Shown here: piece after piece, positions 1,279 through 58,051 of the stretch
Layout: each line of letters opens with the position of its first letter
How positions within the stretch are numbered: position 1 is the first letter of the stretch
IMG/VR virus record: IMGVR_UViG_3300012948_000003
Span: 1 to 64,000 of that record
DNA length: 64,000 bases
Source of the DNA: a virus
Reading direction: 5' to 3' (one strand)
Notes under the pieces: model-generated
Database searches by the model: none
The model's input: the letters and a program-made list of their open reading frames with translations, nothing else
What the model was told of the DNA's origin: nothing
Translations under genes and position numbers: made by a program

Positions 1279-1296
1279 TCGGTCATCCTTTCTTTT
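1264..1296 (+). terminator. Intrinsic terminator-like hairpin
   Basis: 11-bp stem AAGGATGACCG/CGGTCATCCTT followed by TCTTTT, at the stop of the VWA gene. Confidence 0.6.
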
Positions 1297-1305
1297 AAAA
1301 GAAAA
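1288..1305. repeat. Dispersed palindrome copy 1 (17/18)
   Basis: CTTTCTTTTAAAAGAAAA. Confidence 0.95.
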
Positions 1306-1316
1306 TGGAGGACGCT

Positions 1317-1478
1317 ATGAAGATGAAAGTTTCGATCTACCTTAACGGTCGGTTCATCGGTCGCGTCATCTTCAATCGCAGCGACGAACAGCGCTGGCCG
1401 TTTAAGATGCGACCGAAGCTAACACTGCGAGACGCTAACGGAGCTGCATGGTTCTTCTATAGAAAGGAGAAGCAATGA
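1317..1478 (+). CDS. Small hypothetical protein (53 aa)
   Basis: GGAGGA RBS before ATG 1317; stop overlaps the next start (ATGA). Below the ORF-track length cutoff. Confidence 0.55.
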   Translation: MKMKVSIYLNGRFIGRVIFNRSDEQRWPFKMRPKLTLRDANGAAWFFYRKEKQ

Positions 1479-2056
1479 AGATTACCAACTACACGAAGAT
1501 CAACACAGCGACTCTCCGGACTATTGCAAAGAGAGTCGCTGACGTCGAGCTGGAGGAAGACCAGATCAAAATCCTTCACTTGATATTCAGGATGCACGGT
1601 GATCTCACTGCGTATCCACTCCCGGAGCAGGTCGTCTACTCCAACGAACTACGACAGGCTGCTGCTGAGATTCGACAGCGCTACACGCGGATCATTGTCA
1701 TCACGTCTCGCAGTCCAGTCGCGTTAGCTCACTCGCTTGCATGGGAGATGCTACAAGCGCAAGGCGAAGACATCGTACATCAACGTTCCGATTGGGATCG
1801 ATATCAATCGTGGAAGCCTTACGAGTGGGCGAAGGAATATTCACTCGCCGACAAACCTGTAAAGCAGAAGCCTGTCATCCCAATGCAGGAACGCCGCTAT
1901 CAACTCGTGCTCGAAGGCATCGAGCGCTGGAACCAGCGCCAGAAGGAAGCTAACGAGCGCTGGAACCGGGAGACTGAGCAATGCAAGAGACGCCTTGCCA
2001 AACTGCGCAAGCGTCAGCGATACTATGAACGAACTTTGAAAAGGAGACCTCAATGA
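1475..2056 (+). CDS. Hypothetical protein with C-terminal coiled coil
   Basis: AAGGAGA RBS; translationally coupled to neighbours. Confidence 0.75.
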   Translation: MKITNYTKINTATLRTIAKRVADVELEEDQIKILHLIFRMHGDLTAYPLPEQVVYSNELRQAAAEIRQRYTRIIVITSRSPVALAHSLAWEMLQAQGEDIVHQRSDWDRYQSWKPYEWAKEYSLADKPVKQKPVIPMQERRYQLVLEGIERWNQRQKEANERWNRETEQCKRRLAKLRKRQRYYERTLKRRPQ

Positions 2057-2466: not shown

Positions 2467-2469
2467 CCA

Positions 2470-3851: not shown

Positions 3852-4117
3852 CGCTGATCCTTCCCGGTGAATATCTTCGCCACTTCCCACTCCCAGTCTT
3901 CCGTAGGAGTTCCTATTGCATTCAGCAGCGTAGACGCCACACGTTCCCAGCAGTCTCGCATTAGCTCAGGCGCTTTGAATGAGGCGTCTGACTTATTCCA
4001 CTCAAGCTGTGCGCGGAGGTCCAGCTCGCTCTCCGGGATCACAGCAAGCATTTGATCTATGACTTCTGTTAGGTCCCTTTGCCGCGTTACTCTTCCGTCT
4101 CCCGCTCTTTCTTCCAT
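3848..4117 (-). CDS. Hypothetical protein
   Basis: Packed ORF downstream of recA. Confidence 0.6.
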   Translation of the reverse strand: MEERAGDGRVTRQRDLTEVIDQMLAVIPESELDLRAQLEWNKSDASFKAPELMRDCWERVASTLLNAIGTPTEDWEWEVAKIFTGKDQR

Positions 4118-6276: not shown

Positions 6277-6623
6277 TAGTTCACTACGCTGTGCGCCTGA
6301 TTCTCTTCCGGACCTACTGCTCGTTTCTCCCCGTCTCTTAGTTGCCAGAATTTGTCTTGTACCGCACTGACCAGCTCCTTAATCGCTTGCCGACCTAACT
6401 CAGTGGGCGGATAGCGACTCGCTGACAGCTCTAGCAGACCCTTCCGATCTTCAGCATCAATCAACGCAGCGCATTCTGCGCAAGCCGCCCAGCGATCATC
6501 GTAAGAACAATTGAATGTCAGACGGTTAATCACCAGTTTGATCGTGAACGGCTTGCAATGATAGTCCGCTACTATCGGAGCCGGGTCACAACAGAAGTCA
6601 CAGTTGAGTGGGGCAGTTCTCAT
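6276..6623 (-). CDS. Hypothetical zinc-binding protein
   Basis: CDFC...WAACAECAALI. Confidence 0.7.
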   Translation of the reverse strand: MRTAPLNCDFCCDPAPIVADYHCKPFTIKLVINRLTFNCSYDDRWAACAECAALIDAEDRKGLLELSASRYPPTELGRQAIKELVSAVQDKFWQLRDGEKRAVGPEENQAHSVVN

Positions 6624-8056
6624 TTCGTTCTCACTTTCAACGCTTCGTCGCCTGTCGCACGAGCCATAATAAACTGGAAGCCTTCAGCTCGGGCTGCTTC
6701 AACTTCCTTCTCGAAGAGCGCGAACTGGTTCGGGTCCAGCTCCTGCATTCGGTCTACAAGGATCAACGGTACTTTACTCGCTTGCGTCCTGATCTTCGCT
6801 ATTTCTACCGCAATGCGTACGCGCCGGGCATCATTGGCTCGATCAAACGGGATGTAGTCCTGTACTGAATCTTCGAAAACATAGACCTCGCCTTCTCGTA
6901 TTTCGACACCCTGTATTGGCAGTGACTTTATCAACGACTCCTTGAGGTCGCCCAGTTCATCGAGAGACCGAGTTAGAATCTCCGATGCTGCCTCCGCCTT
7001 CTCCGCCTCGGTTTCGCGTTGTTTAATCAGATCGCGTAGAGACTGCGCCTTCATATGCACATCGCGCTTTGCTTCGATGTCGGCAATTGCTTTCTTGATC
7101 TCGTCACGTACCGGAGCCTGCTCCGCATCGAACGCCTTAAGCTGATCAGCAGCGTCGGTCTTTAACGTGTTGAGCGTTGCGGTCTGCTCGGTCTTGATGT
7201 CGTTCAGTTCTCTTATGCTGCGCATCTGTATCTCACCGACCTCTTGCTGCAAGGCTGCGATCTGTACTTCGAGCTGCTTGACTTGTGTATCTGTAGCCTG
7301 CTGCGCTTCGTTGTAACCGAGCCTGTATGCCTTCTCTGTTTCCGCCATCTTCTCTTCCATTGTAGTTCGTATGGAATCAACTCGAAGCTGGCGCTGACTC
7401 TCTTGTGTATCCAGCTCCTTCCGCTTTTCTTTTAAAAGAAAATCCCAGTCACCACCCTCCGCTTCCTCGGGGAGCGCTTTCCGGGCTTCCATTGCAGCGG
7501 CAGTAGCGGTCCTTGCTACTCGATTGATCCCGGTCCGCTCGTCATAGATCATCTTCGTTGTCGAAGCGATCACTTCGAGAGGATGCTTGCCATCGAGTGT
7601 ATCAAGGTGGAAGTTAACAGGCAGACAAGCATTGACCTGTTCCAGCGTCAGCTCCAGCGGCATCGACTCCAGCAGCAACTCTGCGCGATACTTCGGCGGA
7701 GCAATCAGGAAGTCTACCGGGTTCAGCGCAAAGCGATCCAGCAGTGAGTCTATGAAACGCTTCGAAGCTGAGATACGTCCGGTGTTAGGGAGTGAGACCT
7801 TACTGTCAGAGCGTGTCGCGGTAATCGTCTTCTCGATCTGCGTCCCGTCATCGAGTACCAGTACGACCTCGCCTTTCTTTTGTCCTTTGCGTAGCAGCGT
7901 GGCGTCGTGGCCGAATCCGAACGCTGCGCGAATAGCATTCAGGATCGACGTCTTACCGGAAGCGTTAGGCCCTTCGAGAACCGTTTCGCTGCCCGGCTTG
8001 ATCTCGATCTCCTGAATCCCGAGAATGTTCCGAATTAGTATCTGTGTTATTTTCAT
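6620..8056 (-). CDS. SMC/Rad50-like P-loop ATPase with coiled coil
   Basis: EGPNASGKTS Walker A, long central coiled coil, C-terminal LILVD Walker B. Confidence 0.85.
   Translation of the reverse strand: MKITQILIRNILGIQEIEIKPGSETVLEGPNASGKTSILNAIRAAFGFGHDATLLRKGQKKGEVVLVLDDGTQIEKTITATRSDSKVSLPNTGRISASKRFIDSLLDRFALNPVDFLIAPPKYRAELLLESMPLELTLEQVNACLPVNFHLDTLDGKHPLEVIASTTKMIYDERTGINRVARTATAAAMEARKALPEEAEGGDWDFLLKEKRKELDTQESQRQLRVDSIRTTMEEKMAETEKAYRLGYNEAQQATDTQVKQLEVQIAALQQEVGEIQMRSIRELNDIKTEQTATLNTLKTDAADQLKAFDAEQAPVRDEIKKAIADIEAKRDVHMKAQSLRDLIKQRETEAEKAEAASEILTRSLDELGDLKESLIKSLPIQGVEIREGEVYVFEDSVQDYIPFDRANDARRVRIAVEIAKIRTQASKVPLILVDRMQELDPNQFALFEKEVEAARAEGFQFIMARATGDEALKVRTK
7425..7442. repeat. 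Dispersed palindrome copy 2 (perfect; intragenic, read as FLLKE)
   Basis: TTTTCTTTTAAAAGAAAA. Confidence 0.95.
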
Positions 8057-8537
8057 TATCGTCCTTTGTCTTGCCATTGAGAGTAGCGATTAAGAACTTC
8101 GTGACCTCTTCCTGTATTCCGGGATTGTGCGATTCACGATTGCCTGCCACGTTCAAGACTGTAATCCGTTCTAGCCTAATCCAGTTCAGGAAGTCTGTTG
8201 TCACCTGCTCTTCCTCATGCTCAAACACAGGCAATGCAATCGGGAACCACGGCTTGTTATACAGCTTGCAGCATCGCTTCGTCGCTCGTGATCCTAATGA
8301 CCTGTCGTTGCCAAAGATCACTGTACCATTCGAGTTGGCGACATTGATCGAAGTACGATTCGGGTATGAACTCGACGGACTCTCCTCTGCTCCATACAAT
8401 GCAGCAAACTCGGGGTGATTGCCGTCTTCGGCTTTATAGCCTTTCGGCATCGTTCCGCCTGTCTCTAGACCGAGATGTTTGGCAGCAAGCCACCCACCTC
8501 GGTCTGCGCCTGTTTGACCACCAGAGATGATCTTCAT
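7965..8537 (-). CDS. SLOG-superfamily protein ('putative molybdenum carrier' type)
   Basis: KIISGGQTGADRGG...RT..NV..S.GT...LNVAGNRES. Confidence 0.85.
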   Translation of the reverse strand: MKIISGGQTGADRGGWLAAKHLGLETGGTMPKGYKAEDGNHPEFAALYGAEESPSSSYPNRTSINVANSNGTVIFGNDRSLGSRATKRCCKLYNKPWFPIALPVFEHEEEQVTTDFLNWIRLERITVLNVAGNRESHNPGIQEEVTKFLIATLNGKTKDDNENNTDTNSEHSRDSGDRDQAGQRNGSRRA

Positions 8538-10348: not shown

Positions 10349-10366
10349 CTTTCTTTTAAAAGAAAA
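10349..10366. repeat. Dispersed palindrome copy 3 (17/18)
   Basis: CTTTCTTTTAAAAGAAAA. Confidence 0.95.
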
Positions 10367-10759: not shown

Positions 10760-11491
10760 TTAGGAAAGCAGAAACCCGAAGATATGCTCTCCTACGCTAA
10801 CATCAGGAGCGTCCGCACTATTCGCTTCCTCACGAGCAAACCTCACTGCTTTCAGAAGCGTCTCTACGCGCTCTGCTAGTACCGCTTTGCGCGGTGCTGG
10901 CAATGCTCCCGAGTGTTTTACTGTATCCCAGTATCCGACGAGTATGTCCTCAGTAATCATCTGAGTCTGCGCTGGGTGTTCCTTCGTTGCCTCGTACATC
11001 ACGATAGGTCGCTGCGTTTTCTTTGTACGATGCGTTGCGATAGCCGCAGTCTTATACAGACCGCTCGCACCGTCTTCGGTCCACTCGTCCGCCTCGTCCA
11101 GTACGGGCATCTTTTCGATGAACGTTCTGATGTCGGTCAGCTGCTTTTCAAGGAAGAGCAGATACGTTGCCGGAACCGACTTCAAGAGCGTCGAACCGTT
11201 CACAACGACATCCGCTCTTGCGTTGCAGTTCGCCCAGTCCTTCTGAGCCGTAACGTCCATCAGTTCCGTAGAAAGTCTCGCAACCTTCTTCAGTACAGCA
11301 TCTGCCTTGAGCTGTACTACCTTCCGCTCTGGCGGATAGTCTTCGGCGCTCTCGTCCTGACGTCGATACGTCTTCGCGAACCCGTTGAACAGGTCCGGTT
11401 TCTTTGAAGCCTGATGAAGCTCCGTCACCTCGCCGTATACTCGGCCCTTCACGCCTTTCTCGATTGCTACAATTTGATTTAGCTTTGCCAT
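10760..11491 (-). CDS. Uncharacterised helical protein (243 aa) directly upstream of the tRNA-like RNAs
   Basis: AAGGAGA RBS. KLNQIVAIEKGVK...VPATYLLFLEKQL...HPAQ...AREEAN looks like a conserved uncharacterised family (recalled, not searched). Confidence 0.8.
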   Translation of the reverse strand: MAKLNQIVAIEKGVKGRVYGEVTELHQASKKPDLFNGFAKTYRRQDESAEDYPPERKVVQLKADAVLKKVARLSTELMDVTAQKDWANCNARADVVVNGSTLLKSVPATYLLFLEKQLTDIRTFIEKMPVLDEADEWTEDGASGLYKTAAIATHRTKKTQRPIVMYEATKEHPAQTQMITEDILVGYWDTVKHSGALPAPRKAVLAERVETLLKAVRFAREEANSADAPDVSVGEHIFGFLLS

Positions 11492-16765: not shown

Positions 16766-16783
16766 TTTTCTTTTAAAAGAAAG
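16766..16783. repeat. Dispersed palindrome copy 4 (17/18)
   Basis: TTTTCTTTTAAAAGAAAG. Confidence 0.95.
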
Positions 16784-31500: not shown

Positions 31501-34500
31501 CTTAGCCTGTCTATTAGCTCTTTCGGCATCTGCCCGGTTGTATCCACTAGGCGATGCTGAAGCGGACCTGCCTGTGCCCAATACGCGTTCATCAGGTCAT
31601 TAGCTGTCTTTGGGAACTGAGGCTCGTCAGGCTCGGGGGTGTGAGCCTCTTTGATATCCGGGTACAGTCGTTTGAGCGCTTCTTCTTGAGAAAAACTTCC
31701 ATCTGCATGTGTTAAGACGAGACCATCGTCAGTTTTGACAATCCAATCTCCTTCGCGGATAACTCCACCTTCCTCCCAAGACCTCGCTCGTCTGAATGTT
31801 AAGCCCCACGGCGACAGGTCTACTGTCTTTTCTCTCGGACCAACCTCGAAAGACCGTCCGCCTTTGATCTTCGGAGCCTTCTTCAGTGTATCAGTATAGA
31901 GCTGATTCTCTCTTCGGATCGCTTCTCCGGTTAGGTCTCTTCTAACATAGTTTTTGACAGCTTCATCTGTCGCTCCTGATAAATCTTCCCGTGACGGCAG
32001 GAATGGATAATTTGTCGGGTCCTCTTCGGGATTCTTGTGAGCATGCACATCTACCATTATCCTGTTCGGAAGCATTACCGCTTCATTGGTTGGCAGGCTG
32101 ATCTCTTTGACGAACTGCGGCAAGCCGTTATTCAATACTTGTACGCGACCTAAGTACTGTGGGCTCATTTCATCAGAGCCGTAAATTTCTATATCAGCAC
32201 CGGGTACTGTCATACTGCGTATTAGCTTGACAGGGATATTGTCGGGATGCCTTGCATCTTCCGCTGTGATCTGCTTCCCGTTGATATTCATATCGAAGTC
32301 ATACGGAAGTCGATGACGCGCCAAAAACTCAGCTGCTTGAGTTGCCAGACCGTTAGTTCCGGTTTCCTCCATCTGGAACTTTGTATTCTCAGCTTCCTGA
32401 AAAGGCTCGCGTACTTGCAGCCGCAGGAGCGTACCTGTTGGTTCCGGTTTGTCTAAAACGCGAGTCTCAAACTTCAAGCCTCCTTCCATCGGACGAGACC
32501 ATTGCATATACGCTGGTCGGTCATCGCGGTGCAGGCTAGTAACAATAGACTCGTGGTACTTCCCAGTTTCAGGATCGCGATAGACCGTACGTACGTCTGC
32601 CTTTTCAGCATTCCCCATCAACGCGGCTATCGCGATGCCGAGTCCGCCTGAAGCGCCTTGCTCCTTTCCCCACGTGCCACCTATGTTGACGAATTGATTC
32701 TTTACGACATCTGGAGGCATTCCAGTGCCGTTATCTTGAATCCGTATCATTCGGTTAGCTGTATTGACAGTGAGTTCAATGTGTCCTCGTTCACCTTCCT
32801 TGAAGTCCATTCTGCGAAGCGCGTCTACTGCATTCTGTAATCCCTCCTTTACCATCGTCCGGGGAAGATTACCCTTGTAGAGTCCGCCTATCATAATCGC
32901 TTGCAGGCGTGGCTCAATCCCCATCCCGATCTCGCCCTCACGGACCTCGATCTTCGAAGGACGCTCCGGGAATGCTCTACTGAGAAGGACATTTTCTTCT
33001 GATGGATCGTAGGTGCCTATATTGCCAGTGGCGCTCTTGATCTGTTTAGGATCGAAGGCAATATAGGAATCTTCGGCTGTCGGCCACCGCTTCTTGAAAT
33101 CGGCATCAGTCATCCGGTTGCCAAACATGAAAGCAGCCATTAGGTCCCGGTTAACGCCTTCGCGACGATTCAGGTAAACGATTCCATCATAGCCTGAGTC
33201 AGTAATAATCTTTCTCAGCTTCTCATTGAGTCTTTGATGAACCGCTCCGCCTATTCCGGTTTTGGCATATACCCTGTCGAGCAGCTTATCGTGCTCGCGA
33301 TCCGAAATCAGTCCTGCATCGTAGAGCTGTGGGATTATTTCCTCTGGTCTGAAGTTACCGTTATCGACCATGCGCAACGGGTTCTTCATCGAGAGATAGA
33401 CGGGCATTACATTTGTTCCTTCGCCCTCTATTCCTTTTCTGCCCTGCTTCAACATCATTGTTTCGGCAAGGTCGTTGACTTGATTTTGAGTTCCGAAATG
33501 CGTACCTATTTCATCTGTATCGGCTCTTCGACCTTTCGTGTCGAAGGTATGGAAGTCTTCATTCGTGACGTGTTGCAGAACTTTCGGCGAACCATCGGGC
33601 TCCTTCAACCCTTCATAGTTACCTTCAGTGAATTTCTCCAGCGGTGTTCCTAACGCCTCTGCGCCCATTGGAACCTCTCTCATGAAAGGTCCGAGCTTAA
33701 GCCGTTCTTCCTTCTTCTTCGGGAATCTCTTCGCGAGTAGAGTACCCTCCTTTTCGTCTGGATGCGCAATCAGCGCAAGTTTTAGTTGTCTTTGTGCCTC
33801 CTGCGGAAATTCTTTTAAAAGAAAAGGGTGTTCTCCACGAACAGAGTCATATGCATCTTTCAGATAATCGACAGCAGCGGTCGCTTCTGGCGTCATCCGT
33901 CCAGCCTGAGCCCCCTCCAGACCTTTTGCCAGCGATCCAATAGGGTTCTCGTGAGACGCAAGAATGGACTTGACTGTGTCTATTGTATCTTCAAGGTCAT
34001 GTCCCGGCTTACGTGTAGGTAGGATTACTTTCGATATCTCTTCGATTGCGTCATCCAGCATCTTACGACGATCAGGCGTAGTCGTGTGATAGTCTCTCCA
34101 GAACTGAGTCCGTCGTTCTTCGACATCGGCAGGTACCTGACCAATCCTTCTAAATGGAGCTGTGGTCTTGAATGCTTTGACCTTCTTTGAAAGCAGAGGT
34201 TCGTCTTCGGTCGGATGCACTATTTGGTTCCGGTTGAAGATCAGCATCTCTTCTCGCGGACCCGGTCTCATATTCCGCATGATGATCGCGTCGTGACCTT
34301 CCGACTCTGCCCAGTCTCGTAGACCTTGAAGATCATTGCTATCCCGAACTTCATACTTGTTTCCATTATGCGAGTAGACGTCGAACGGTAAGGTCTGCGT
34401 GTTGGCAATAGGATCGACAAACATTCCCTCCGGTGTTTCATCGATTATGTTTAATCGCGGACTCAGCTTGCCATTAACTGTTTGCAGGACCTCTTCGGGA

Positions 34501-40500: not shown

Positions 40501-41270
40501 CCACTCAGTGCTTGAACTGCTTGAAGCGCAGTCTGATATTCAGGAGATGTTAAGAGCTTTCGAACATCAGGAGGGAGCTTTTGGAGGGAGGTAGGAATCT
40601 TAAAAGGTTTCTTCGGGGCAGTTATCGACGGCCATTGTATTCCGGTGTTAGGATCAGTATCATATCGTACAGAGTAACCCCACTCCTGCTTGAGTTGATC
40701 GGCAACATTCGCTGCACCTTCGAGATCGCCTCGGGCTTTTAAGCTCTCGAAGTTCTGCGCTACGAGTTCGTCGGGACGTGGTTTCCATGCTGGAGCAGGA
40801 GCTGCTGGCGGAGGTGCAACAGGCGGAGCCGCTGGCGGAGCAGCGCCTTCATCCGGTAAGGCATCAGGGCTGATAGACCCCATTGCCGCGACATGTACAT
40901 GATTAGAATGTTTACCTATAGCACCTACCGATTGACCGCCTCGCCATCCACCAACAGGATCGTGATACAGTTCTGCCAGATTCGGACCGTAAGTATCCCG
41001 GAGATGCTCGGTGAATGCTCTCATCGACTCGGGCGCACCTGTAAAGTCCCAGCCCTCACCAGCGACGTGCATCGAACCCGGTCTACCACCTACGGCGCGA
41101 TTATGCGCAGGCGTACGCTTTGCCGACGAGAGAGTCAGACCATAACCCTGAGCTTCTCGCGTCAGCGTCTCTTGAGGATTAGCCCCGAGGTCTGCCCACT
41201 GCGGCAAGTCCTCTGGATTAATCGGCGCTAATGCCTGCGGGTTTTGTTGGAATTGTGATGGGTCTTCCAT
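25539..41270 (-). CDS. Giant polyvalent virion-associated protein (5243 aa)
   Basis: Uninterrupted 15.7-kb ORF. M15-like peptidase motifs (SMH...WDF...HSNHVHV), two HExxH motifs, two ADP-ribosyltransferase-like segments, GHKL ATPase (EGLQNAVDA, IQDNGTGM). Confidence 0.85.
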   Translation of the reverse strand: MEDPSQFQQNPQALAPINPEDLPQWADLGANPQETLTREAQGYGLTLSSAKRTPAHNRAVGGRPGSMHVAGEGWDFTGAPESMRAFTEHLRDTYGPNLAELYHDPVGGWRGGQSVGAIGKHSNHVHVAAMGSISPDALPDEGAAPPAAPPVAPPPAAPAPAWKPRPDELVAQNFESLKARGDLEGAANVADQLKQEWGYSVRYDTDPNTGIQWPSITAPKKPFKIPTSLQKLPPDVRKLLTSPEYQTALQAVQALSGVTQPISRTLRRMAAAGAPEMTPEAIAARREQWLAAEQQATQARQAQEAAAAAEQRRRAALPYIEQLAARGGDVLDWPLELIGGAMGRGGGAMLSGAGRLLEDARLGYSQMRPLAPLGRALGTAGRAWQEVGATGPGAPQPGPLTPEQVAGAAAELIPLFAAGGGNVGLGIMSFTQALGQGLPYREAVMHGITTAAGAKLAGALTSEVPWGGIRGLAARGALATGGFELPQAIVSGRLPDLSTPEGQRQALMNAILMYGTEALAGPHGPAYEARERGRAIAEQAPIQGPGFAAYGVPEPGVGPPSAAQLRLRNRLNEFLAGQGITPAEAAALPIERKQQLADAFRAEEARIRGPRAAEEAGRGFEVVPGTARLQVATPAWHRARAEERAHAEAENLEREQFGRPLHDVERQVFHSLPDDTPPLNLEELHHIMRGRGIMPPTGPPPPAPAPPEVAERGFEARPLPGEELPGAREPFVSPVPTPTTFIEVGGKWYPYQREDNVWRSPGRPDIPVALVGPERIKTPTPALQGQVVYYTGRTTRGTGEPLQVVRRRGSKVQVIGEDGTLRSYDISDVTDVRPDYRMSPVYGRNSRESAERFLANLPEGARGEIVTRTTRRGAVPNYITGYQVRWRSREELEAGRRAPAPEEVPAVPPPEEPVATPEQLEHLRQQYGAWEEPTPAAPQVIQGPETVPAPYAGPERRVSTAGYRLAGESPEDYRARMASLGFTPRSYEVPERPLPEGWEEPEEFRGRGEPTAEEAEAAARAPAVTLPPPAPPVIPGEELIEKGIPAFVGAPKPAEAPAKAMTPKEQQDAFAEQRHGELGENAPMIPGWRKDWGNVTAIGRLPNGETLVRDEQGRSHWTARGKNLDLPRVEWADIGIEGPAFFSPEKFKSIMDSINVGRRDAGQPEYPTDWEQLLANYPDVAKEHFPEAYKRAQQELRDDEGNILFMKHFRPVMPERDSQWAEVEEPEPDIEPPLLQIERFLRGEPPFPVVGTGRAKQALKKSKEWLGAYGARRPVVTRGMNLNTPSGQRRAIEAIVKHTLAEIRAWRRIARDYVPFYSTDITERTNPLLQKWAEGRYDRQLTDPEISFLHMLSAYASGAQPPGMDTAYGMRAFDEYVRTGTATGLGGLKPVYDYYTRTRQKADWIPTEWVPRREAGLKFDPVTGKEIRQPVYIDAATGKKTFIRKGNEELRHPTKRAKLTKAFNIRSLNRFNELLTTRFDGDLGAAIDWMATKHPWSEIVDMIGKDAAKKIKKHEYLDKVNPSFGVFALGDSSPKQGSYILNRWGEFGPITKDLWYARTMARYFGRPISDQPWGGKLNQENIKMRRLADEAWRQVARQLRIKPAEVQERMWDAERVAYAALGHSEARGLGYTSQGVPVGERLINQDDLERDLPGYLAGEPSEPPLLSLNSTSDRALDDRDVTSRRISVKFAQRRQAEESPRPGRIRRAFLNDAAGRVLGTIMDVQEADGASMKRDGYGKLAYELGKTIQFFDLPPSSPLYTLYRDLVDAYQKNEPAYEIVSPYTGTEPGMEGAKGLRAFITTIRHEGTHSAMTVLRNSFPRLEDRERVASFTNALFGFEKEDINDLTHDELAALKMDMILAAKGYDNDPIVRAMEVIGHVGGGSRNLAEPTAPPNFRLSLDEQARLVKHVIRTLNEHYGDAAESVLQRAALEVRQENRRFYEEKRARLQTESATERGYANLEPGGSTAATEGGPPRSVQPTGVEPYPGVSGSPPPIAGGVPTRRGQRGRGGVPQAEQLELPFESREFPQDHGATEPAYPYGKSPLEADLEEMERNEQEELNQFYEDNPQLAKRFGGKVLPGRAKFLKKRLEDKLASLSPEDLKELDNQYLLTFDRYADQRYKEGYRGGVDRLKEEYVRKYGELVPINTGRSHRSVGRNLVEETLDQLTPKTRKLSLVPKPGEEPELSRRFPDEQILEAHHGSDDDTLTPENLEEREPGYPGSLGKGIYFGQDEDTARYYGRHVVSTQVRVRNPLIIDPEEVLQTVNGKLSPRLNIIDETPEGMFVDPIANTQTLPFDVYSHNGNKYEVRDSNDLQGLRDWAESEGHDAIIMRNMRPGPREEMLIFNRNQIVHPTEDEPLLSKKVKAFKTTAPFRRIGQVPADVEERRTQFWRDYHTTTPDRRKMLDDAIEEISKVILPTRKPGHDLEDTIDTVKSILASHENPIGSLAKGLEGAQAGRMTPEATAAVDYLKDAYDSVRGEHPFLLKEFPQEAQRQLKLALIAHPDEKEGTLLAKRFPKKKEERLKLGPFMREVPMGAEALGTPLEKFTEGNYEGLKEPDGSPKVLQHVTNEDFHTFDTKGRRADTDEIGTHFGTQNQVNDLAETMMLKQGRKGIEGEGTNVMPVYLSMKNPLRMVDNGNFRPEEIIPQLYDAGLISDREHDKLLDRVYAKTGIGGAVHQRLNEKLRKIITDSGYDGIVYLNRREGVNRDLMAAFMFGNRMTDADFKKRWPTAEDSYIAFDPKQIKSATGNIGTYDPSEENVLLSRAFPERPSKIEVREGEIGMGIEPRLQAIMIGGLYKGNLPRTMVKEGLQNAVDALRRMDFKEGERGHIELTVNTANRMIRIQDNGTGMPPDVVKNQFVNIGGTWGKEQGASGGLGIAIAALMGNAEKADVRTVYRDPETGKYHESIVTSLHRDDRPAYMQWSRPMEGGLKFETRVLDKPEPTGTLLRLQVREPFQEAENTKFQMEETGTNGLATQAAEFLARHRLPYDFDMNINGKQITAEDARHPDNIPVKLIRSMTVPGADIEIYGSDEMSPQYLGRVQVLNNGLPQFVKEISLPTNEAVMLPNRIMVDVHAHKNPEEDPTNYPFLPSREDLSGATDEAVKNYVRRDLTGEAIRRENQLYTDTLKKAPKIKGGRSFEVGPREKTVDLSPWGLTFRRARSWEEGGVIREGDWIVKTDDGLVLTHADGSFSQEEALKRLYPDIKEAHTPEPDEPQFPKTANDLMNAYWAQAGPLQHRLVDTTGQMPKELIDRLSKAPYAAPLTNALQKGWEILRNRLMSLNEDYQNVHYAGFGTHKSPDASNYYGINLPHPMVFQTPGPDIVLLNPYATADYIQKKIDLGVYMKGEETQEYARHMAATMTHELIHRLQRNHYEGFSSDLTAAMSHVYHDFGQVSRLIEKALGRGEAGRETFGRILDDSKEISASVGTGKGVFGKIGSEYAAERGPELLVGEGAAGERAEGRAGRAVPEVGAGREPAAAVAPPDVARNIELGGRATDHPTIMRFRRDISGKEGQLNIAANPIDGLKSAMVLGYDAYHTIKDFKDWSKEMLKKAGEAVRPILKDLWTQVQAFHGQGAAFYSPLRKTLEAKMTGPMDASDLSKLLKGQGISDAEMEETRFNSFLKKKAAAAIDLKSKIARGETPTKEERENAKVTPQEAKNWIDRHEIKINEVIAGEAAKLDWKHLDKEGNEHDLDEQNLSRVRKATNLEGRSMYIVPPQGPDAEKAQEKIAQLDKEHAELWKKLDDLYARREPLIRELGEEKYGRRAMDIETVMLVNEQEKEKLETQQRQFRVMDNPPLMKLPEGVTIEPAGRYYPALSDEGHEAKLEDIKKRKMDAEQEYSETERRIGTPDETLEDRQRAAYLVGRINQLAGRYRELQARHWTITVPPEIADTKVTLGPGTKALSKEAPPGSVQYTLSAPTEEEMRQYIIDKVNQANTRSSHRNLEQAEGVVAANLDTGKTVRFGGPRYQTPGGTNYKEFRISIPEPELGDQAFMDYRNSLLEKYDIPQDVFAKSALASRMTPEEKSKLVRMEAAAKAHIAGRFRQPHWTDEPYNILHARTTDRNILLEDLGNDFPELIERLKAQGRDSARAFHVEELQSDYGQGIRRKGVTAKPEQAEAAVQARKEYAEYRSSLEKKYGTPYIGREGNATPEEIEKLRELTGKLDYDAELANQLAQRRRLVTELEQSRYYDSADMLESLRSAKERGATDQQLKDYRRELEEKEGRRRDTELADLHREIKNLEDRLGTKIPPAPFVGSTEDWSTLALRRLMRYAAENGYDLLTWSPGSEQYYRWGSERIDWKKSTEGRGQFKVNVKEQHQGQVGDINLEEQARQRGVLMEGATGVSTEKGLRSILAKTLKREESQYAPELWTKHLDELAAKIWKQMQTNPEGTYMPRKEGFEGFYDRMIPNYVSKITKKFGARMGKGVLDLYPAEKPVTEGMFGEETGMREPIQVGAVEINPEMQRSLTTEGQPIIGGEPRFLAEARARVRQAMVGNVTSMNPLQLFGDVGLITGADVYKLTKSFAGWSNQMVKRLGAAIKPHLDSIWSQIKQFGAEEEGALKIPPRLQAVMKGMKQEKKEIARNLYFSGFLTPSGAVKVAAGLAGKQGMDWTANLLASAIENTRAAAKGQVPKYDFTVGNVMNAAIEGAKKGAKATAEIAQGKPSLMQPWYKETDVGDPVANGLLNHMHRLYGGKENLFRGFHYESALEEAANMIARVDPNQLGGSLESRAAHYKQNPPLVAQIQAAVGGQYANLLDTLAETVVNFQADQAKTPMSVSKRLGKQVLLVAHPKDLLHEYALMQATKGVGAQQNALARALLNVKDWEVAGRPLFSPNSQGAQKLASMLQLAVTTEVPFIKRPVNAMTTIFKDYLGLSAMAKLKDFNDFQKGVMSLPEHQDFLKAVSKGTIGLGLVALGLGMQRAGLMTGAMQDDYKKRGALYIGGNAIQIGAVPFWGWLLTFGATIGEAIERGTVQGLGQGMFQMVSEHPLLRGVQALTEQVHALKGGEVAPGKAGAQHLAGMAARFVPSAVASAAQFIDRDAQGRVIQRKPEGLLGPTMARIPGLRQKLPERTVLDRKQTESYWSPIPVRPVSELPTKAEQHALGIMRQTPMAPPTEYSEERRNTEREIVRLMKADKDDEANEAFEKAVDDGILTPDDAKVISKMTDATFLQRAVHKMSLEDAVGIYMKDASPAERDQLDDIIEAKIESFSKLADKGKIPGKRVDAVKELLDKFDEMRAQP
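33808..33825. repeat. Dispersed palindrome copy 9 (16/18; FLLKE in the giant protein)
   Basis: AATTCTTTTAAAAGAAAA. Confidence 0.9.
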
Positions 41271-41287
41271 TTTCTTTTAAAAGAAAA
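41270..41287. repeat. Dispersed palindrome copy 10 (perfect; fills the whole intergenic gap)
   Basis: TTTTCTTTTAAAAGAAAA between the stop at 41288 and the ATG at 41270. Confidence 0.95.
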
Positions 41288-45294: not shown

Positions 45295-47232
45295 TTACGC
45301 TTGCAACTTAACGATAAGTGCTCTTCTAGTCGAAGAAGTAAACGTACCTAAAGTGGAAGGCAAGGCACCGCCGCTGATATTGTTTGAGGTTGTAAATTTT
45401 ACGGGGACCGACCCTTGAGCAACATTCATGTACGACGTATTCTCGGTAAAGAAATTCACCGCTACCACAGCGGTGTCGTCGCAGGCAACGGCTTGAATGT
45501 ACCATCCGGGCTCAAGGGTCACGTCCGCGCCGAGCGTAGTGGTCTTCACTGCGACAGCTCCGGTACCTACGTCGATTTGTCCACTATTAATAAGCAGGCT
45601 TGTTCCGTCATGGTTGTATATGCCAATGTACGCCTTCTTTCCGGCAGACGCCTGCTGCAACCAGAAACATAATTGATGCACAACCAGCTTTAAAGGTAAC
45701 CAAAATCTGACAGCTGTTATATTATTCGCCGATTCAAACTGCGTCTGAGTTACTGCCGCAGTATCACCTATTTCTAGTGCTGGTATAAACCACGACTCTG
45801 ACGAGTTAGATGCATTCGTGCCAGTCGCCCCAGTATAACCCGTGTAACCCGTGTATCCGGTCGCACCTCCAGCACCTCCGGAGCCAGCAGGCCCAGTATA
45901 TCCGGTATATCCGGTATATCCCGTATATCCTGTGTATCCGGTTGGTCCGGTATAGCCCGTGTAACCCGTATAGCCTGTAAAGCCACTATTCGGTCCAGTG
46001 TACCCGGTATAGCCTGTTGCTCCGGTGTTTGTTGCTACCCCGGAAGGACCAGTGTAGCCAGTGTAGCCCGTTGGTCCAGTGTAACCCGTATAGCCTGTGT
46101 ACCCCGTGTACCCAGTCGCCCCGGTGTTTGTTGCCGAACCCGCAGTGCCTGTGTATCCAGTATAACCAGTGTAGCCTGTGTAGCCAGTTGCACCTGTATT
46201 CGTCGCGGAACCAGCAGTGCCAGTATACCCTGTATATCCGCTGTACCCGGTTGGACCCGTGTACCCGGTTGGACCCGTGTAGCCAGTGTACCCGGTCGGT
46301 CCGGTGTAGCCAGTTGCTCCAGTGTATACTGCTGTGCCCGGAACTCCGGTGTAACCAGTATAACCTGTCGGTCCGGTTCGACCAGTGAAGCCAGTATAAC
46401 CAGTATAGCCTGTATATCCGCTAGGCCCGGTGTAACCAGTGTATCCCGTGTACCCAGTCGGTCCAGTGACAGTAGACGCAGCTCCACCTGCGCCTGTGTA
46501 ACCCGTATAGCCCGTGTATCCGGTATAACCCGTCCTGCCAGTGTAGCCCGTGTACCCTGTGTAACCAGTGTAACCGGACGGACCCGTGTAACCAGTCGTT
46601 CCAGTATAACCAGTCGGACCAGTTACCGTCGAAGCAGCTCCACCCGGCCCAGTGGGACCTGTCGGTCCAGTTACGGTAGATGCAGAACCTGTCGGTCCAG
46701 TGTAACCAGTAGGACCCGCAGGTCCTGTAGCGCCGAGACTTACAGCTGCTATTTTAGCATCAATTTGCGTTTTTGTATAGGTAGCAAGGTCTAAGTTAAC
46801 AGCTACAGCGACTGTATAAATACTTAAGTCCGCCCATGTCGCGCAGGTCCCCGCTGGAGCGCAGGAAGTAGTGCTGATGATTACTGGCGGGACCTCGATG
46901 TCCTGCATCCCGGCAACTACACCGATAAGAGCACCGCTATCTCTGTACCAGTAGAAAGTGTATGTTGCTAACTGAGTGATGGCGGTAGCATCCGTAGTTG
47001 ACTTAAGCGTGAACGCAGGAACCGTTACAGTACTGACGCCATCGAATGTACAAGGGATATCGAGATAGTATTGTCCGTTCTCAGGAGACCCACCCGGAAC
47101 ATAAACTGGCGAAGCATCGCTCGTCAGGAAAGACGTAGAAGCAAACACGCGAAGGCGTGGTGGCGCAGCAGCCGTCACACCAACTGCGTGAAAGTCCAAA
47201 ACAGTTTGAGCCTGTACGTGGATGTCAGCCAT
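45295..47232 (-). CDS. Collagen-like fibre protein with Gly-Tyr-Thr/Gly-Pro-Thr repeats
   Basis: About 300 aa of G-X-T triplets between globular N- and C-terminal domains. Confidence 0.85.
45820..46735 (-). repeat. 9-bp-period coding repeat (G-Y-T/G-P-T triplets)
   Basis: Codon-degenerate tandem triplets with recurring [13 protein letters not shown] interruptions. Confidence 0.9.
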
Positions 47233-47249
47233 TTTCTTTTAAAAGAAAA
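47232..47249. repeat. Dispersed palindrome copy 11 (perfect; fills the whole intergenic gap)
   Basis: TTTTCTTTTAAAAGAAAA between the stop at 47250 and the ATG at 47232. Confidence 0.95.
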
Positions 47250-52013: not shown

Positions 52014-52700
52014 TTATGCCGCCTTTGCTGCTACTGCTTCACTTGCTGCTTCAAGCGCTCCGATATCGCCAGCTGCGATTGCCTGAAGCATCGCTTGAAA
52101 CTGCTGTCCCCATGTTCCCTGTGGACCTGCGTTCTCACCTTCGACTGGAACTAGCATTGCCATAGCGCCGACCGTCACTGCCCAGCGAGATTCATCGGGA
52201 GCCTGACATGCGCTTGTCTGAGTATAGTTCGGAGCTTCTACATCGACACTGACTGTGCCACCACCGCTCTGTGCGGCAATCGCTGCTCCGTTATGGAATA
52301 TCCTGCGCCCTTCGATTCGATAGTGCGGATCAAAGTCCAGCGAGAGCACGTTATCAATCTCGTGCTGAATCTCTGACAACTCCCATGCAACACCTGCTCG
52401 TGTTCCCGGTGAGGTACCACCAGTAACCACAAACCTGACGTCTCCAATCGGACCAGCTGTGCCAGTGATCAATCCGCCATGCGCGACACCAGTCTGGATC
52501 GCATAGTACGATGAAGCGCGAGCATTGTTACGGTTCTTCATATACGCTGCTACAACAGCATCGTCGGCGCTCAGGACAGCATCGACGATCTGCTGTGTTG
52601 CCCAGCGTGGATCGATCACCGTAGCCGAGTAAGCTCCGGGTGTACCAGCGTTCAACAGTAGAACGCAGTCAGTACTGACTACCGACAGAGAGACACTCAT
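52014..52700 (-). CDS. Putative virion structural protein
   Basis: Coupled ORF in the structural operon. Confidence 0.55.
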   Translation of the reverse strand: MSVSLSVVSTDCVLLLNAGTPGAYSATVIDPRWATQQIVDAVLSADDAVVAAYMKNRNNARASSYYAIQTGVAHGGLITGTAGPIGDVRFVVTGGTSPGTRAGVAWELSEIQHEIDNVLSLDFDPHYRIEGRRIFHNGAAIAAQSGGGTVSVDVEAPNYTQTSACQAPDESRWAVTVGAMAMLVPVEGENAGPQGTWGQQFQAMLQAIAAGDIGALEAASEAVAAKAA

Positions 52701-53023
52701 TGTTTCACCTTCGCAACAGAGGACGGCACAACGAAAGCTGTCCCGCATTCCTTACAGGTCTCAATGAAACATCCAGTCTCTTTCAGGTACTGGACGTGCG
52801 CTTCATAATCACTTTGAAAGTCCTGTATCTCGCGTATTGCTGCGACTCTGCGACGATAGCGCTCGTCGAACATCGGCGGCTCCCACTCGGAAGCTGCCTT
52901 TCCACACTTCGGGCAGGTACCCGGAGCAGCTGGCTTCATAGCGCCTTCCGGATACACTGTTGTATTTGCAACGTTCAGGAATCCGTCGCCGTGCGGTTCG
53001 AGATTTGGATTTTCTTTTGACAT
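52697..53023 (-). CDS. Zinc-ribbon hypothetical protein
   Basis: CPKCG...CKECG. Confidence 0.6.
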   Translation of the reverse strand: MSKENPNLEPHGDGFLNVANTTVYPEGAMKPAAPGTCPKCGKAASEWEPPMFDERYRRRVAAIREIQDFQSDYEAHVQYLKETGCFIETCKECGTAFVVPSSVAKVKQ

Positions 53024-53025: not shown

Positions 53026-53043
53026 TTTTCTTTTAAAAGAAAA
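53026..53043. repeat. Dispersed palindrome copy 12 (perfect)
   Basis: TTTTCTTTTAAAAGAAAA. Confidence 0.95.
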
Positions 53044-53046: not shown

Positions 53047-53075
53047 TTGACATCAGGGATGTCTCGGGTTACTAT
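53047..53075 (+). promoter_or_regulatory. Sigma70-like promoter for the + strand insert
   Basis: TTGACA, 17 bp, TACTAT. Confidence 0.6.
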
Positions 53076-54766: not shown

Positions 54767-55939
54767 TCATTGATGTTTGGCTTGTATCTTCTCCACCAAC
54801 GCATCGAGATCGATTTCGGGTTCTCCGTTGTTGCTTTCGACTATCGTGGCCGCTGAGGGATCGACAGGACTCGCTGCATCGAGCATTGAGGCTGCTGCTG
54901 CTGCTGCGACACGCGGACCAACGATTGAATCCGGTACTGGAGCGCTCGGTCTGAATTCATACGAGCAGAATCGACACCTGCGCGGAGGTCCACCAGCTAT
55001 CGTGTTCAAGTATTCACCACACTCGGGGCACTGGACTTTTTCTCCAGCAGGAGCAGCAGCGACATTTGCTCCTGCAACGCCACCGACAATCTCCCGGACA
55101 AGAGTTCGAATCTCTTCGACGCCGATAGGATTCTTTCCAACTCCCTCCAGTGTACGCGACAATGCGGTACGTTCCGGCTTACGACCGAGCAGCCACATAA
55201 GCGTCTGGTCATAAGTGTCGTAGACTTGTTTCTGCCCGGCGCGGATCGCTTCCTCTTTCTGAGCAAGAATCGAGTTCGCTTGCGCTTCAAAGATATCGAT
55301 TGCCGGAATTAGCTTTGACACGATTGCATCGAGCCAAAGTTCCCTCAGATGTGGCTTTGCGCTCAGAATCGGCATCGCTCGCTCTGCGCTGATATTCGTT
55401 GACAGCGTTTCCGCTGCTTCCATCAGCCATTGACGACGCAGAACCAGCATTCCACGTTGCTCCAGAATGCTCCTGAACTCGGTCGGAAAGGTCCGCTCAA
55501 GAACTTTTGACGGTTCGATCAGCCTGTTCAGCTGCTCGTGCTCGACTTCGTTTGTATCAAAGCTCTCGATTCGAGTGAGCCCATGCATGATCATAATCCG
55601 ATCTGCCAGCAATGTGTCCAGAGTCGTCTGAGCCGGAATCTCGATTGACTCGTGCTGATCGGTTGTGATCCCGAAGAAATTCTTGATCTCTCGGGTCTTT
55701 CGAGCAGCGCCCTCTGGTAACAGACCTCGCCGGGTCCAGTGCTGCGTGTTACCAATCGCAAAGACCTCGCCAGCCCGGATCGAGTCAAACGAAAGCGTCA
55801 TACGTCGCAGGTCATCAATCGACAAACCGGGCAAGTACACATAGTACGGACCCGGTCCGCTCGTGTTCACGTCTCGCTCGATAATTGTCCGCATCGGCAT
55901 ATCGGGCGGACCTTGTTGTATTACTTCATGAGTCGCCAT
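54767..55939 (-). CDS. Hypothetical protein with C-terminal zinc ribbon
   Basis: AAGGAGA RBS; CPECG...CRFC. Confidence 0.75.
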   Translation of the reverse strand: MATHEVIQQGPPDMPMRTIIERDVNTSGPGPYYVYLPGLSIDDLRRMTLSFDSIRAGEVFAIGNTQHWTRRGLLPEGAARKTREIKNFFGITTDQHESIEIPAQTTLDTLLADRIMIMHGLTRIESFDTNEVEHEQLNRLIEPSKVLERTFPTEFRSILEQRGMLVLRRQWLMEAAETLSTNISAERAMPILSAKPHLRELWLDAIVSKLIPAIDIFEAQANSILAQKEEAIRAGQKQVYDTYDQTLMWLLGRKPERTALSRTLEGVGKNPIGVEEIRTLVREIVGGVAGANVAAAPAGEKVQCPECGEYLNTIAGGPPRRCRFCSYEFRPSAPVPDSIVGPRVAAAAAASMLDAASPVDPSAATIVESNNGEPEIDLDALVEKIQAKHQ

Positions 55940-55984
55940 AAGTCTCCTTGCTTTTAAAGTAAATGGTGGTTACTATTCTTGTAG

Positions 55985-56194
55985 ATGCGCTACACGAAAG
56001 CACAACAAGAACAGATTAGACGTGCGACAGAGCGCCTTTTAAATCCCGAAGGTCCACTTCCTGAGAAACATACCTGTAGTCACCCCGAACGCGACTGGAA
56101 CGAACTAACGTACAAGCAGAAGTCTAAGCGAGATGCCTGTGCGCGTTGCCGCTGGTTCAGACGAGTTGCCCGGCAGCACCGGGTCTATGAATAA
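55985..56194 (+). CDS. Small basic Cys/His protein
   Basis: HTCSH...CARC; fills the gap between - strand genes. Confidence 0.4.
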   Translation: MRYTKAQQEQIRRATERLLNPEGPLPEKHTCSHPERDWNELTYKQKSKRDACARCRWFRRVARQHRVYE

Positions 56195-57041
56195 TGAAGG
56201 TGTCTACTCCCTTGCGACTGGTAAACTTTGCCTTATGCGATTTGTAGGCATCACGGATTCGCAATCTCATTTCCTCGCGTTCTTTCTCGGATCGCTTCTC
56301 GTGAGCATCTGCTAGCCGCTTCAAGTTCTGATACATCGTCAATTCATCGGGAGCCTCGGTCCAATCATGTCGGTAAGGCTCGTCAAGATTCTTTCTCCAT
56401 AAGCTCTCGACATAAAGCATATCCAGATCGGAAGGTGGACGAAAGAGACCAAAGCATTTCCGGCGCTCCTCCTTTGCCTTGTCACAACACCTTCGACCGC
56501 GTTCGTGTACCCAAATCGGATGAAACCCGAGATAGTAGATTCCTTCCCGAGGGAAAGCGCCCATGTCAGCGGCGGGATTCCTTACTTCATCAAGTACACG
56601 TCTGCGAGCTTCCTCCCACGAACCGATAAGAGTCGGAGCGAACCATTGCGAAATCCAGAAACGCGGGATGCCGATCTCTTCTTTGTAAAGCATCAGCGGA
56701 TACGGAAGACCTGCCACTTCGCCGAGCTTTACTTCGGTCCGAGCCCGATCCATTGTATTCGATCCTACTTTCAGATCGAACTTACGCGTACGTATCCAAC
56801 GTCCTGTATCACGATCCGTGTAGTCGATTGCCCACCCGACTTGTCTATCGCGAGAATAGGCAAGATATTTCAGCGCGGAAGTATAAGGCGTCCACGTTGC
56901 AGTTGATCCCCATTCTAGTCGCAGCTTAGGCAGACCGTTTGGTGTTAATCCGGCTATGCGGACTAACTCACGCTGCCATCGATCTGTGATTGGTGGTGGC
57001 GAGAAGTTCTGCTGTGGAGGCCAAATGTCGAGTGGATTCAT
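56157..57041 (-). CDS. Hypothetical protein
   Basis: 294-aa ORF, ATGA-coupled. Confidence 0.7.
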   Translation of the reverse strand: MNPLDIWPPQQNFSPPPITDRWQRELVRIAGLTPNGLPKLRLEWGSTATWTPYTSALKYLAYSRDRQVGWAIDYTDRDTGRWIRTRKFDLKVGSNTMDRARTEVKLGEVAGLPYPLMLYKEEIGIPRFWISQWFAPTLIGSWEEARRRVLDEVRNPAADMGAFPREGIYYLGFHPIWVHERGRRCCDKAKEERRKCFGLFRPPSDLDMLYVESLWRKNLDEPYRHDWTEAPDELTMYQNLKRLADAHEKRSEKEREEMRLRIRDAYKSHKAKFTSRKGVDTFIIHRPGAAGQLV

Positions 57042-58051
57042 ACAGCTACCTTTTCTTTTAAAAGAAAACGAGCAAGCAGCTCTGAGTCGTTAGCAGGATC
57101 GTATGTTGCTTCAAAGATATCGCGTATCGTCAAACACATTCGTTCATAGTGGTCTTCTGGCATTTCAGTGATCATCTTCGCTGCTTCCTCTACGGAATGC
57201 TTGTCGAGATCGATACAGGAGATGCCGTCGCTCCAGAAGATCGAAGCACGTTGTCCTTGATAATAGCTGGCGTGACCTATCAGGGGTCTACCTATCGCTG
57301 CCCAGCAATGCAAAACATGTCCGAATCCGTCACCTGTCGGCTTGTCGTGATAGGCCCAGTCAGCAAGCGTCATCTCTTCTGCTATTGCTGCCACTGGGGT
57401 CAGGAATCCGTCCGGGCAATCGTGACCATAAGACCGGAACATAAATTTAGGCATCAGCGCTCGAAGCCTACAGAACGGTTCCCAGCATTCCGGAATCAAT
57501 GGAAGCAGATTCAGGAACGATGTCACACGCTGCGTGTATCGCGGTGAGCGATAACGGAAAATCGAATCGGAGTCAAACTCCTGACTAATATGCAATCCAC
57601 GTCCGCCGAGAGGTATCATTGTCGAATCAAGCGCGAGTGGATCGAGCTGCCAGTTCACTGCCTGACGTGCATTACCGATATGATAGAGATACTTTGCGCC
57701 GATCTCATTTGCGAAGATACGGAACCCGAGCTGATTCTCCTGTACGGTTGCGATAACACAGTCCCACCTCATACTCCGCGCCCGACTAAGAGTAATGCCG
57801 TAGATCGGACGTTCAGGGTGGCACGAATCAAAGGTCAGGAAGATTCCGGGCTCAATCTCACGGAAAGCAGCGGTATTCAAAAACTGCTTCGCTAATCTAT
57901 CGTCACCGTATGCCTGACCAAACTTCCAGTAGTCCGCATCCCACCAATCGCGACCGACAGGCACATAGAGTCGATAATTCAGTCTGTCTTCGAAGAGCCG
58001 CTGTAATGAGTACAGCAAGTCTGCGTGATGTCTATCCGCTAGAACATTCAT
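57038..58051 (-). CDS. Glycosyltransferase-like protein (GT-B)
   Basis: DGFGHVLHCWAAIGRPLI resembles the GT4 E-x7-E region; lies in the GT cluster. Confidence 0.65.
   Translation of the reverse strand: MNVLADRHHADLLYSLQRLFEDRLNYRLYVPVGRDWWDADYWKFGQAYGDDRLAKQFLNTAAFREIEPGIFLTFDSCHPERPIYGITLSRARSMRWDCVIATVQENQLGFRIFANEIGAKYLYHIGNARQAVNWQLDPLALDSTMIPLGGRGLHISQEFDSDSIFRYRSPRYTQRVTSFLNLLPLIPECWEPFCRLRALMPKFMFRSYGHDCPDGFLTPVAAIAEEMTLADWAYHDKPTGDGFGHVLHCWAAIGRPLIGHASYYQGQRASIFWSDGISCIDLDKHSVEEAAKMITEMPEDHYERMCLTIRDIFEATYDPANDSELLARFLLKEKVAV
57051..57068. repeat. Dispersed palindrome copy 13 (perfect; FLLKE; 10 bp before the next start)
   Basis: TTTTCTTTTAAAAGAAAA. Confidence 0.95.

Follow-up and report, generated by a model that had tools for sequence, protein, structure and literature searches.

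Dispersed palindromes in a lytic-looking phage and its relative

The window analysed here, the first 64 kb (64,000 nucleotides, G+C ~52%) of the viral record IMGVR_UViG_3300012948_000003, carries 13 nearly identical copies of a short AT-rich palindrome, and it also encodes, in the open reading frame (ORF) 19832-21127, a protein that is predicted to bind them. The full record has 104,444 bp (CheckV completeness 100%) and is called G000 below, its relative of 104,058 bp being G001; window coordinates are also G000 coordinates. Judged by its genes, G000 is a tailed phage. Those annotated encode large and small terminase, tail fibres, a DnaB-like helicase, a sliding clamp, a UvsX-like recombinase, ERF/YqaJ recombination proteins, RusA, a DnaD-like loader and a polyvalent protein of 5243 amino acids (aa), and about two thirds of the proteins have no annotation. 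Gene calls were home-made and the resulting gene map is rough; it puts nearly all G000 genes on the minus strand, from ~99 kb down to ~4 kb.

Transcription of G000 is probably carried out by host RNA polymerase, because searches of this genome for an RNA polymerase or sigma factor of the phage's own were negative and sigma70 promoters close to consensus occur in it. No tyrosine or serine integrase was detected in G000 or G001 by searches that were positive in control genomes. A ParA-type ATPase (PF13614) gave nothing over the cut-off in either phage, with 14/14 controls positive, and the ParB_N/cytidine triphosphatase (CTPase) domain (PF02195) gave nothing at E <= 0.01 in either genome, with controls positive in 11/14 genomes. 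Since integrase, ParA and ParB_N are undetectable in both phages while the controls respond, G000 looks strictly lytic.

All 13 exact copies of the core TTCTTTTAAAAGAA that an earlier note, made from the letters of this DNA, had listed were recovered at the same positions, and 100 dinucleotide-preserving shuffles contained none. As that note had counted, eight are perfect 18-mers and every copy keeps the core; four have one mismatch at an outermost base and one (33808) has two. No further degenerate copies with up to two mismatches were found in the window, so that decayed copies are absent. When the scan was extended to the whole genome, as the note had proposed, 25 exact cores were found in 104,444 bp and none in the reversed-sequence control. 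The half-sites in G000 are TTTCTTTT-AAAAGAAA. Only the inner 14-16 bp are truly symmetric; in copies oriented by transcription, both outer flanks have an A-rich sense strand. Spacing along G000 is more even than random (coefficient of variation (CV) 0.56, p about 0.002), also when compared with random placement at gene junctions, where 0/5000 permutations were as even. This regularity is a property of G000 only and is absent from G001 (CV 1.06). Elsewhere, in bacterial and archaeal genomes and other viral contigs, the exact 18-mer occurs in single copies only among the matches listed.

Homologues of the large terminase protein TerL were found at 55-72% identity, and alignment-based scans returned G001 as the only close relative: a complete genome with direct terminal repeats, a TerL 57% identical to that of G000 and 45 proteins shared in synteny. 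Megablast against GenBank phages and single-protein searches for related loci gave no match. The earlier note had also proposed a scan of relatives, which turned out in two ways: the G000 motif itself has 0 copies in G001, and an analogous palindrome is present there. The most abundant k-mer of G001 is the palindrome TTCTTCCGGAAGAA, with 57 copies of CTTCCGGAAG and half-sites TTTCTTCC-GGAAGAAA; its 14-mer occurs elsewhere in single copies only among the matches listed. The arms TTCTT/AAGAA are common to both phages, whereas the centre is CCGG in G001 and TTAA in G000. Contexts in G001 match those in G000, with copies at gene boundaries, ATGs 0-7 nucleotides (nt) after many of them, and promoters nearby. 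Such a palindrome is absent from more distant TerL relatives (<45% identity), and the motif family is known from two genomes only. Because G001 was assembled independently and carries an analogous motif, an assembly artefact is argued against. As a separate feature, both ends of G001 have tandem 15-bp repeats, of a unit containing CTCGGACTTGCG in 7 and 12 copies, inside the direct terminal repeats (L061 1-115; L066 about 3869-4048).

Placement at gene boundaries and promoters

In genomes that are ~90% coding, 20/25 copies in G000 and 47/57 in G001 are intergenic or at gene edges. The earlier note had described the copies as lying inside and between genes; "between" holds, and "inside" applies deep within genes to only 2/13 copies in the window (7425 and 33808). 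Another 2/13 (23945 and 57051) occupy the last codons of a gene, and the rest are intergenic or overlap a start codon (Table 1). In-frame copies always read F-L-L-K-E. The tight link of the copies to gene boundaries, start codons and promoters had been missed in that first reading. An ORF-opening ATG lies within -1 to +12 nt of one end in 18/25 copies in G000 and 23/57 in G001, compared with 13.5-13.7% of random positions. In 8 G000 copies the motif ends with the A that opens the ATG, and no Shine-Dalgarno (SD) sequence is left; where an SD is present, it begins at the last motif bases (AAAG running into GAG). In the direction of transcription, the first arm of a copy frequently shares bases with a stop codon, and the copies at 41270 and 47232 take up all the space from stop to ATG. 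Beyond the window, those at 69046 and 76786 are also among the gap-filling or stop-abutting copies.

Table 1. Copies of the palindrome in the window, with adjoining promoter-like sites and the candidate binder operon
Feature	Position	Strand	Sequence or basis	Context
Copy	1288..1305		CTTTC...AAAA	After terminator-like hairpin following ORF 4-1278; last A = A of ATG of ORF 1305-1478 (+)
Copy	7425..7442		Perfect	Deep inside ORF 6620-8077 (-; AAA_15/SMC-like ATPase), read F-L-L-K-E
Copy	10349..10366			8 nt upstream of ATG of small ORF (-); AAAG end runs into GGAG SD; GC-rich hairpin upstream
Copy	16766..16783			Abuts TAA of ORF 16784-17017 (-); 7 nt upstream of ATG of ORF 16417-16758 (-)
Copy	19585..19602		Perfect	10 nt upstream of ATG of sliding-clamp gene 18414-19574 (-); downstream of ParB-fold gene
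Candidate binder, DNA-binding part	ORF 19832-21127, residues ~46-169	-	Profile and model	ParB/Noc/KorB-type helix-turn-helix (HTH) DNA-binding domain
Candidate binder, C-terminal part	ORF 19832-21127, residues ~197-396	-	Model	Long helices (coiled coil); tail Lys-rich, disordered
Small ORF, 75 aa	21124-21351	-		Overlaps start of ORF 19832-21127; pair conserved in G001
Promoter-like site	21385-21413	-	TTGACA-N17-TAGAAC, read directly from sequence	Heads operon 21124-21351 + 19832-21127
Copy	21424..21441			10 bp upstream of -35 of promoter-like site 21385-21413 (-)
Copy	21856..21873		Perfect	Between back-to-back promoters
Promoter	Starts at right edge of copy 21856	+	TTGACT-N17-TATAAG	Gene ATG 21925
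Promoter	16 bp left of copy 21856	-	TTGACT-N17-TATACT
Copy	23945..23962		Perfect	Last codons of ORF 22971-23993 (+; FLLKE); last A = ATG of ORF 23962-24522 (+)
Copy	33808..33825		Two outer mismatches	Deep inside 5243-aa ORF, read FLLKE
Copy	41270..41287		Perfect	Exact gap from TAA of ORF 41288-42958 (-) to ATG of 5243-aa ORF 25539-41270 (-); no SD
Copy	47232..47249		Perfect	Exact gap from TGA of ORF 47250-47594 (-) to ATG of tail-fibre ORF 45295-47232 (-)
Copy	53026..53043		Perfect	2 nt upstream of ATG of ORF 52697-53023 (-); 3 bp upstream of -35
Promoter	53047-53075	+	TTGACA-N17-TACTAT	At copy 53026
Copy	57051..57068		Perfect	Last codons of ORF 57038-58069 (-; FLLKE); 9 nt upstream of ATG of ORF 56157-57041 (-)

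The closeness to start codons, together with the A-rich sense strand of both outer flanks, would fit a translation-initiation cassette in the mRNA, with the A-rich 3' half serving as an unstructured, SD-independent leader (in G001, GGAAG as a weak SD) or with the palindrome serving as the operator of a translational repressor. We think this improbable, since an RNA element needs no perfect palindromic centre, yet both phages keep one. Hairpins formed by the sites are marginal, copies upstream of -35 boxes would fall outside the downstream mRNA and some copies lie deep inside genes, while SD-less starts are common in G000 anyway, at about half of the called genes. For the tight fit between stop and ATG, the simplest explanation is a site that is tolerated only in the spacers of a compact genome, and its A-rich arm may double as an SD-less leader.

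Some of the copies precede sigma70-like promoters, with 0-16 bp between palindrome and -35 box. When both phages were pooled, the motif was centred 10-36 bp upstream of the -35 in 10/23 strong intergenic promoters, where 0.96 were expected; with motifs re-dealt over non-coding and gene-edge positions only, 0/5000 permutations reached 10 (p < 0.0002). In G001, seven strong promoters have a copy just upstream. Promoter-adjacent copies make up only 12-18% of the total, even under relaxed criteria, and no hidden weak promoters were seen at the remaining copies. At the back-to-back promoters around copy 21856, the listed ORF 21874-22353 (+) opens with a TTG at 21874 that is the -35 hexamer of the promoter itself; its true start is likely the in-frame ATG at 21925, which has a GGAG before it.

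The palindrome could itself be a phage-specific promoter, or the site of a middle or late activator that replaces the -35, with leaderless or short-leader transcripts starting at the motif end or just beyond it. Its copy number and its placement upstream of genes resemble phage promoter sets, and the copies at 1288 and 81992 in G000 and 22320 in G001 each stand between a terminator-like hairpin and an ATG, with no space for another promoter. Even so, we consider this very unlikely: no RNA polymerase or sigma factor of the phage was detected, and the giant ORF is a polyvalent protein of the ejected type. A perfect palindrome gives no direction and no conserved -10-like element stands at a fixed distance; the CCGG centre of G001 melts poorly, and an upstream activator would need more than the 0-10 nt that separate the motif from the ATG. 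The giant ORF, which has a copy at its start and another within it, is a single frame of 5243 aa at 25539-41270 (-), with an M15 peptidase, two ART-PolyVal matches and a HATPase domain; its G001 counterpart has 2887 aa and is similar in part only.

Site positions are mostly not orthologous between G000 and G001, which indicates that sites turn over. Turnover of this kind is also what would speak for selfish mini-palindromes or for recombination hot spots that bound exchangeable gene cassettes. We find this scarcely credible and rejected the cassette-boundary and mobile-element reading, as the copies are not enriched where conserved genes meet variable ones, in G000 or in G001 (Fisher p = 1). 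The strict conservation of the core, the lack of decayed copies and the specific association with promoters also argue against it.

Two further features of the genome were noted. ORF 10760-11491 (-) encodes a 243-aa protein with an end-to-end match to Pfam DUF7873 (E 2e-100), and the k-mer GAGCGAGCCA occurs in three clusters, one in the window (22549-22910) and two in the rest of G000 (82632-83642 and 98607).

Symmetry of the sites and a candidate binding protein

In both phages, perfect symmetry runs through the centre of the site although the centres differ. Complementarity at the variable outer positions is no more frequent than expected if they vary independently, with no compensatory pairing, and the minimum free energy of the RNA hairpin is weak (-4.4 kcal/mol in G000; -2.1 kcal/mol in G001, z = -0.03 against shuffles). 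A stable hairpin, intrinsic terminator or structured RNA element was rejected on these marginal energies and the lack of compensatory changes; the terminator finder lacked the specificity for use on more than a few clear cases. These data favour duplex DNA that is read by a two-fold symmetric dimer, because a hairpin needs no self-complementary loop, yet both centres are palindromic, because the outer positions show no compensatory changes and RNA hairpins are marginal, and because copies upstream of -35 boxes would be left out of the RNA that starts downstream of them. The proposal of the earlier note, that the copies are binding sites for a dimeric protein acting genome-wide, gains support from the central symmetry in two phages and from the weak hairpins.

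That note had named two ORFs as candidate binders, and ORF 19832-21127 (-) emerged as the stronger. Its 431-aa product has no Pfam or PHROG match, and its family has ~14 full-length members among 1.8 billion representatives, with no member found in bacterial or archaeal genomes. The family profile matches Noc (E 0.003) and Spo0J over the same stretch. An AlphaFold model built on the family alignment has a mean predicted local distance difference test (pLDDT) score of 81, with ~90 over residues 20-165, and its top Foldseek matches are ParB, Noc, Spo0J and KorB structures. Only ~45 residues precede the DNA-binding domain, which leaves no room for a CTPase domain, and the first 16 of them are modelled as disordered at low confidence. 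The recognition helix would lie around MSVSR.YG.PN, at residues ~104-116. An orthologue with 34% identity is present in G001, and motif copies bracket the gene in both phages. With a ParB/Noc/KorB-type domain in profile and model, conservation in G001 and flanking motifs, the protein is the predicted binder of these sites. The 75-aa ORF 21124-21351 that precedes it has conserved CxC...H residues and gave no clear match, KorA-like or other, in the fold comparison. The second candidate, ORF 17014-17946, was rejected, as it has no Pfam ParB signal, no homologue in G001 and only a weak Atlas lead with a 14% share.

The evidence of symmetry and placement is binder-agnostic, and the same duplex-DNA dimer sites might be bound by another phage protein, such as an unrecognised small regulator, or by a host factor. 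We give this a minor though real chance. About two thirds of the phage proteins are unannotated, which leaves room for another binder, and it weighs against ORF 19832-21127 that its link to the sites consists of its fold and of co-occurrence in only two genomes. On the other side, the proteins scanned yielded no further conserved candidate with a DNA-binding fold. A host factor would have to differ between the hosts of the sister phages exactly at the site centre, and the single-copy occurrence of the exact 18-mer in bacterial and archaeal genomes and other viral contigs, among the matches listed, also speaks against one.

G000 encodes a NusG paralogue of 198 aa (98724-99320, -; L046:14724-15320; Pfam NusG, E 3e-9) whose gene heads the ~95-kb leftward gene array; the gene is weakly conserved in G001 (102447-103079), where three motif copies surround it.

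The palindromes might be recruitment or pause sites of the ops type for this paralogue, with non-template-strand hairpins that load an RfaH-like factor, keep the polymerase processive over the ~95-kb array and aid SD-less starts. The retention of the NusG-family gene by both phages, at the head of the array, would suit this, as would the fact that the non-template strand shows the same palindrome whichever way it is transcribed and that several sites abut SD-less ATGs. We nevertheless judge it decidedly unlikely. The known ops sites of RfaH are asymmetric and stand one per operon, in leaders, whereas 25-57 copies are present here, and a bubble hairpin needs no palindromic centre. Sites upstream of a -35 are not transcribed from those promoters, and nothing ties the NusG paralogue to the motif.

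Proposed function and comparison with known systems

We propose that the palindromes are duplex-DNA docking sites for the homodimer of a phage protein, most likely the product of ORF 19832-21127, which would form a dispersed network of the KorB/Noc kind in a lytic phage. We hold the case for this reading to be evenly balanced. The binder would be made early, from a sigma70-type operon with its own site beside the promoter, and the homodimer would occupy ~25 sites in G000 and 57 in G001, protein and site having presumably diverged together between the sister phages from one centre, TTAA or CCGG, to the other. The sites would lie in tiny intergenic spacers because an invariant sequence of 14-16 bp is tolerated almost only there. 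The effect of binding, argued by analogy, is speculative. At about one site in six, directly upstream of a host-type -35, the bound protein may modulate initiation and would most likely repress it, and the promoter-distal majority may act as insulators, roadblocks or anchors that organise phage DNA via the coiled coil. In a bolder form, which we consider possible though doubtful, a clamp-less, ParB-fold, coiled-coil protein would punctuate the lytic phage chromosome by docking at nearly every third to fifth gene boundary, limiting transcription units through repression of early host-type promoters and through insulation or roadblocks between genes, and perhaps bridging sites into a phage nucleoid, the 18 bp serving as SD-less leader as well.

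If the predicted binding is true, the ParB DNA-binding module, known from partition, nucleoid occlusion and plasmid regulons, would also serve in the genome-wide control or organisation of a virulent-phage chromosome. The switch from TTAA to CCGG would then be a two-point natural experiment on the co-evolving specificity of ParB-family site and protein, and motif and protein together would make an orthogonal DNA-protein pair for practical use.

Two of the roles that the earlier note had suggested gained no support. Partition of the parS type is opposed by the lack of a detectable ParA and ParB CTPase domain and by the dispersal of the sites, and stoperator-like silencing of a prophage by the lack of a detectable integrase and by the symmetry of the sites. 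No evidence was found linking the sites to packaging, which that note had also named. Of the parts of a ParABS system, the model predicts a ParB-type HTH for a palindrome of the 16-bp class, while ParB_N and ParA were not found in either phage. By sequence, the sites would belong neither to a ParABS system, nor to a CTP clamp, nor to the stoperators, and their closest kind appears to be the dispersed operator or ParB site.

Sites of the ParB family are spacer-less palindromes of 13-16 bp read by dimers (PMC7383237, PMC11790492), and the motif is of the same size and symmetry class. The site parS is TGTTTCAC-GTGAAACA and the Noc-binding site (NBS) is TATTTCCC-GGGAAATA (PMC7383237), and the core of the KorB operator OB lies within TTTTAGCGGCTAAAAG (PMC11790492). 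The likeness to KorB and OB of the IncP-1 plasmid RK2 covers fold, site class, dispersal and a subset of sites directly upstream of the -35, and repression by KorB is exerted from an operator that lies 4 bp ahead of a -35 box or, in the native arrangement, immediately before it (PMC11790492). The N-domain of KorB is a CTPase; the protein forms a sliding clamp that is locked by KorA and partitions its plasmid with IncC (ParA) (PMC11790492). In contrast, no CTPase domain or ParA was found for ORF 19832-21127 in either phage, its product has a long coiled coil for a C-terminal half, the 25-57 sites are spread over the genome of a lytic phage, and no clear KorA-like match emerged for the 75-aa partner.

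Noc and NBS of Bacillus subtilis are alike in fold, site class and dispersal (PMC7383237, PMC8429893). Noc, a cellular CTPase, carries a membrane-targeting helix and prevents division over the nucleoid (PMC7383237, PMC8429893), whereas in the phage protein the CTPase domain and a membrane-targeting helix were undetected (the latter without a dedicated amphipathic-helix test), and the phage sites are concentrated at gene boundaries.

The stoperators of Cluster A (PMC6550527, PMC9283540) and the start-associated sequences (SAS) of Cluster K (PMC3203893) likewise comprise dozens of near-identical short sites in short intergenic gaps, and the SAS stand immediately upstream of start codons (PMC3203893), as do many copies here. 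Both are asymmetric and oriented by transcription, and stoperators are bound by the monomeric immunity repressor of temperate phages, whereas the G000 sites are perfect palindromes in a genome where no lysogeny genes were found.

Closest among phages are the 17-bp repeats of Cluster O mycobacteriophages (TGTTCGG-N3-CCGAACA), which are dispersed, invariant palindromes in non-temperate-looking phages, mostly intergenic or at the 5' ends of genes (PMC4351075). They number 34 invariant copies, most of them not at promoters; a dimeric binder was predicted, and these phages encode proteins with ParB-like domains (PMC4351075). The description that fits them, some 30 invariant palindromes lying mostly between genes and mostly off promoters, fits G000 and G001 as well. 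The Cluster O repeats differ in sequence, in having a variable 3-bp spacer and in lying inside genes in about one third of cases; in the published description they lack a close link to start codons, and no candidate binder is put forward (PMC4351075). A non-exhaustive literature search found no paper tying a phage ParB-like protein to genome-wide palindromes in lytic phages. Identical palindromes by the dozen were already known from lytic phages, with no binder or function assigned. To these the present analysis adds a sister phage that keeps the arms of the site and switches its centre, a conserved candidate binder that has the DNA-reading domain of ParB, Noc and KorB and lacks the CTP clamp module and ParA, and a statistically solid link of a subset of the sites to the position directly upstream of -35 boxes.

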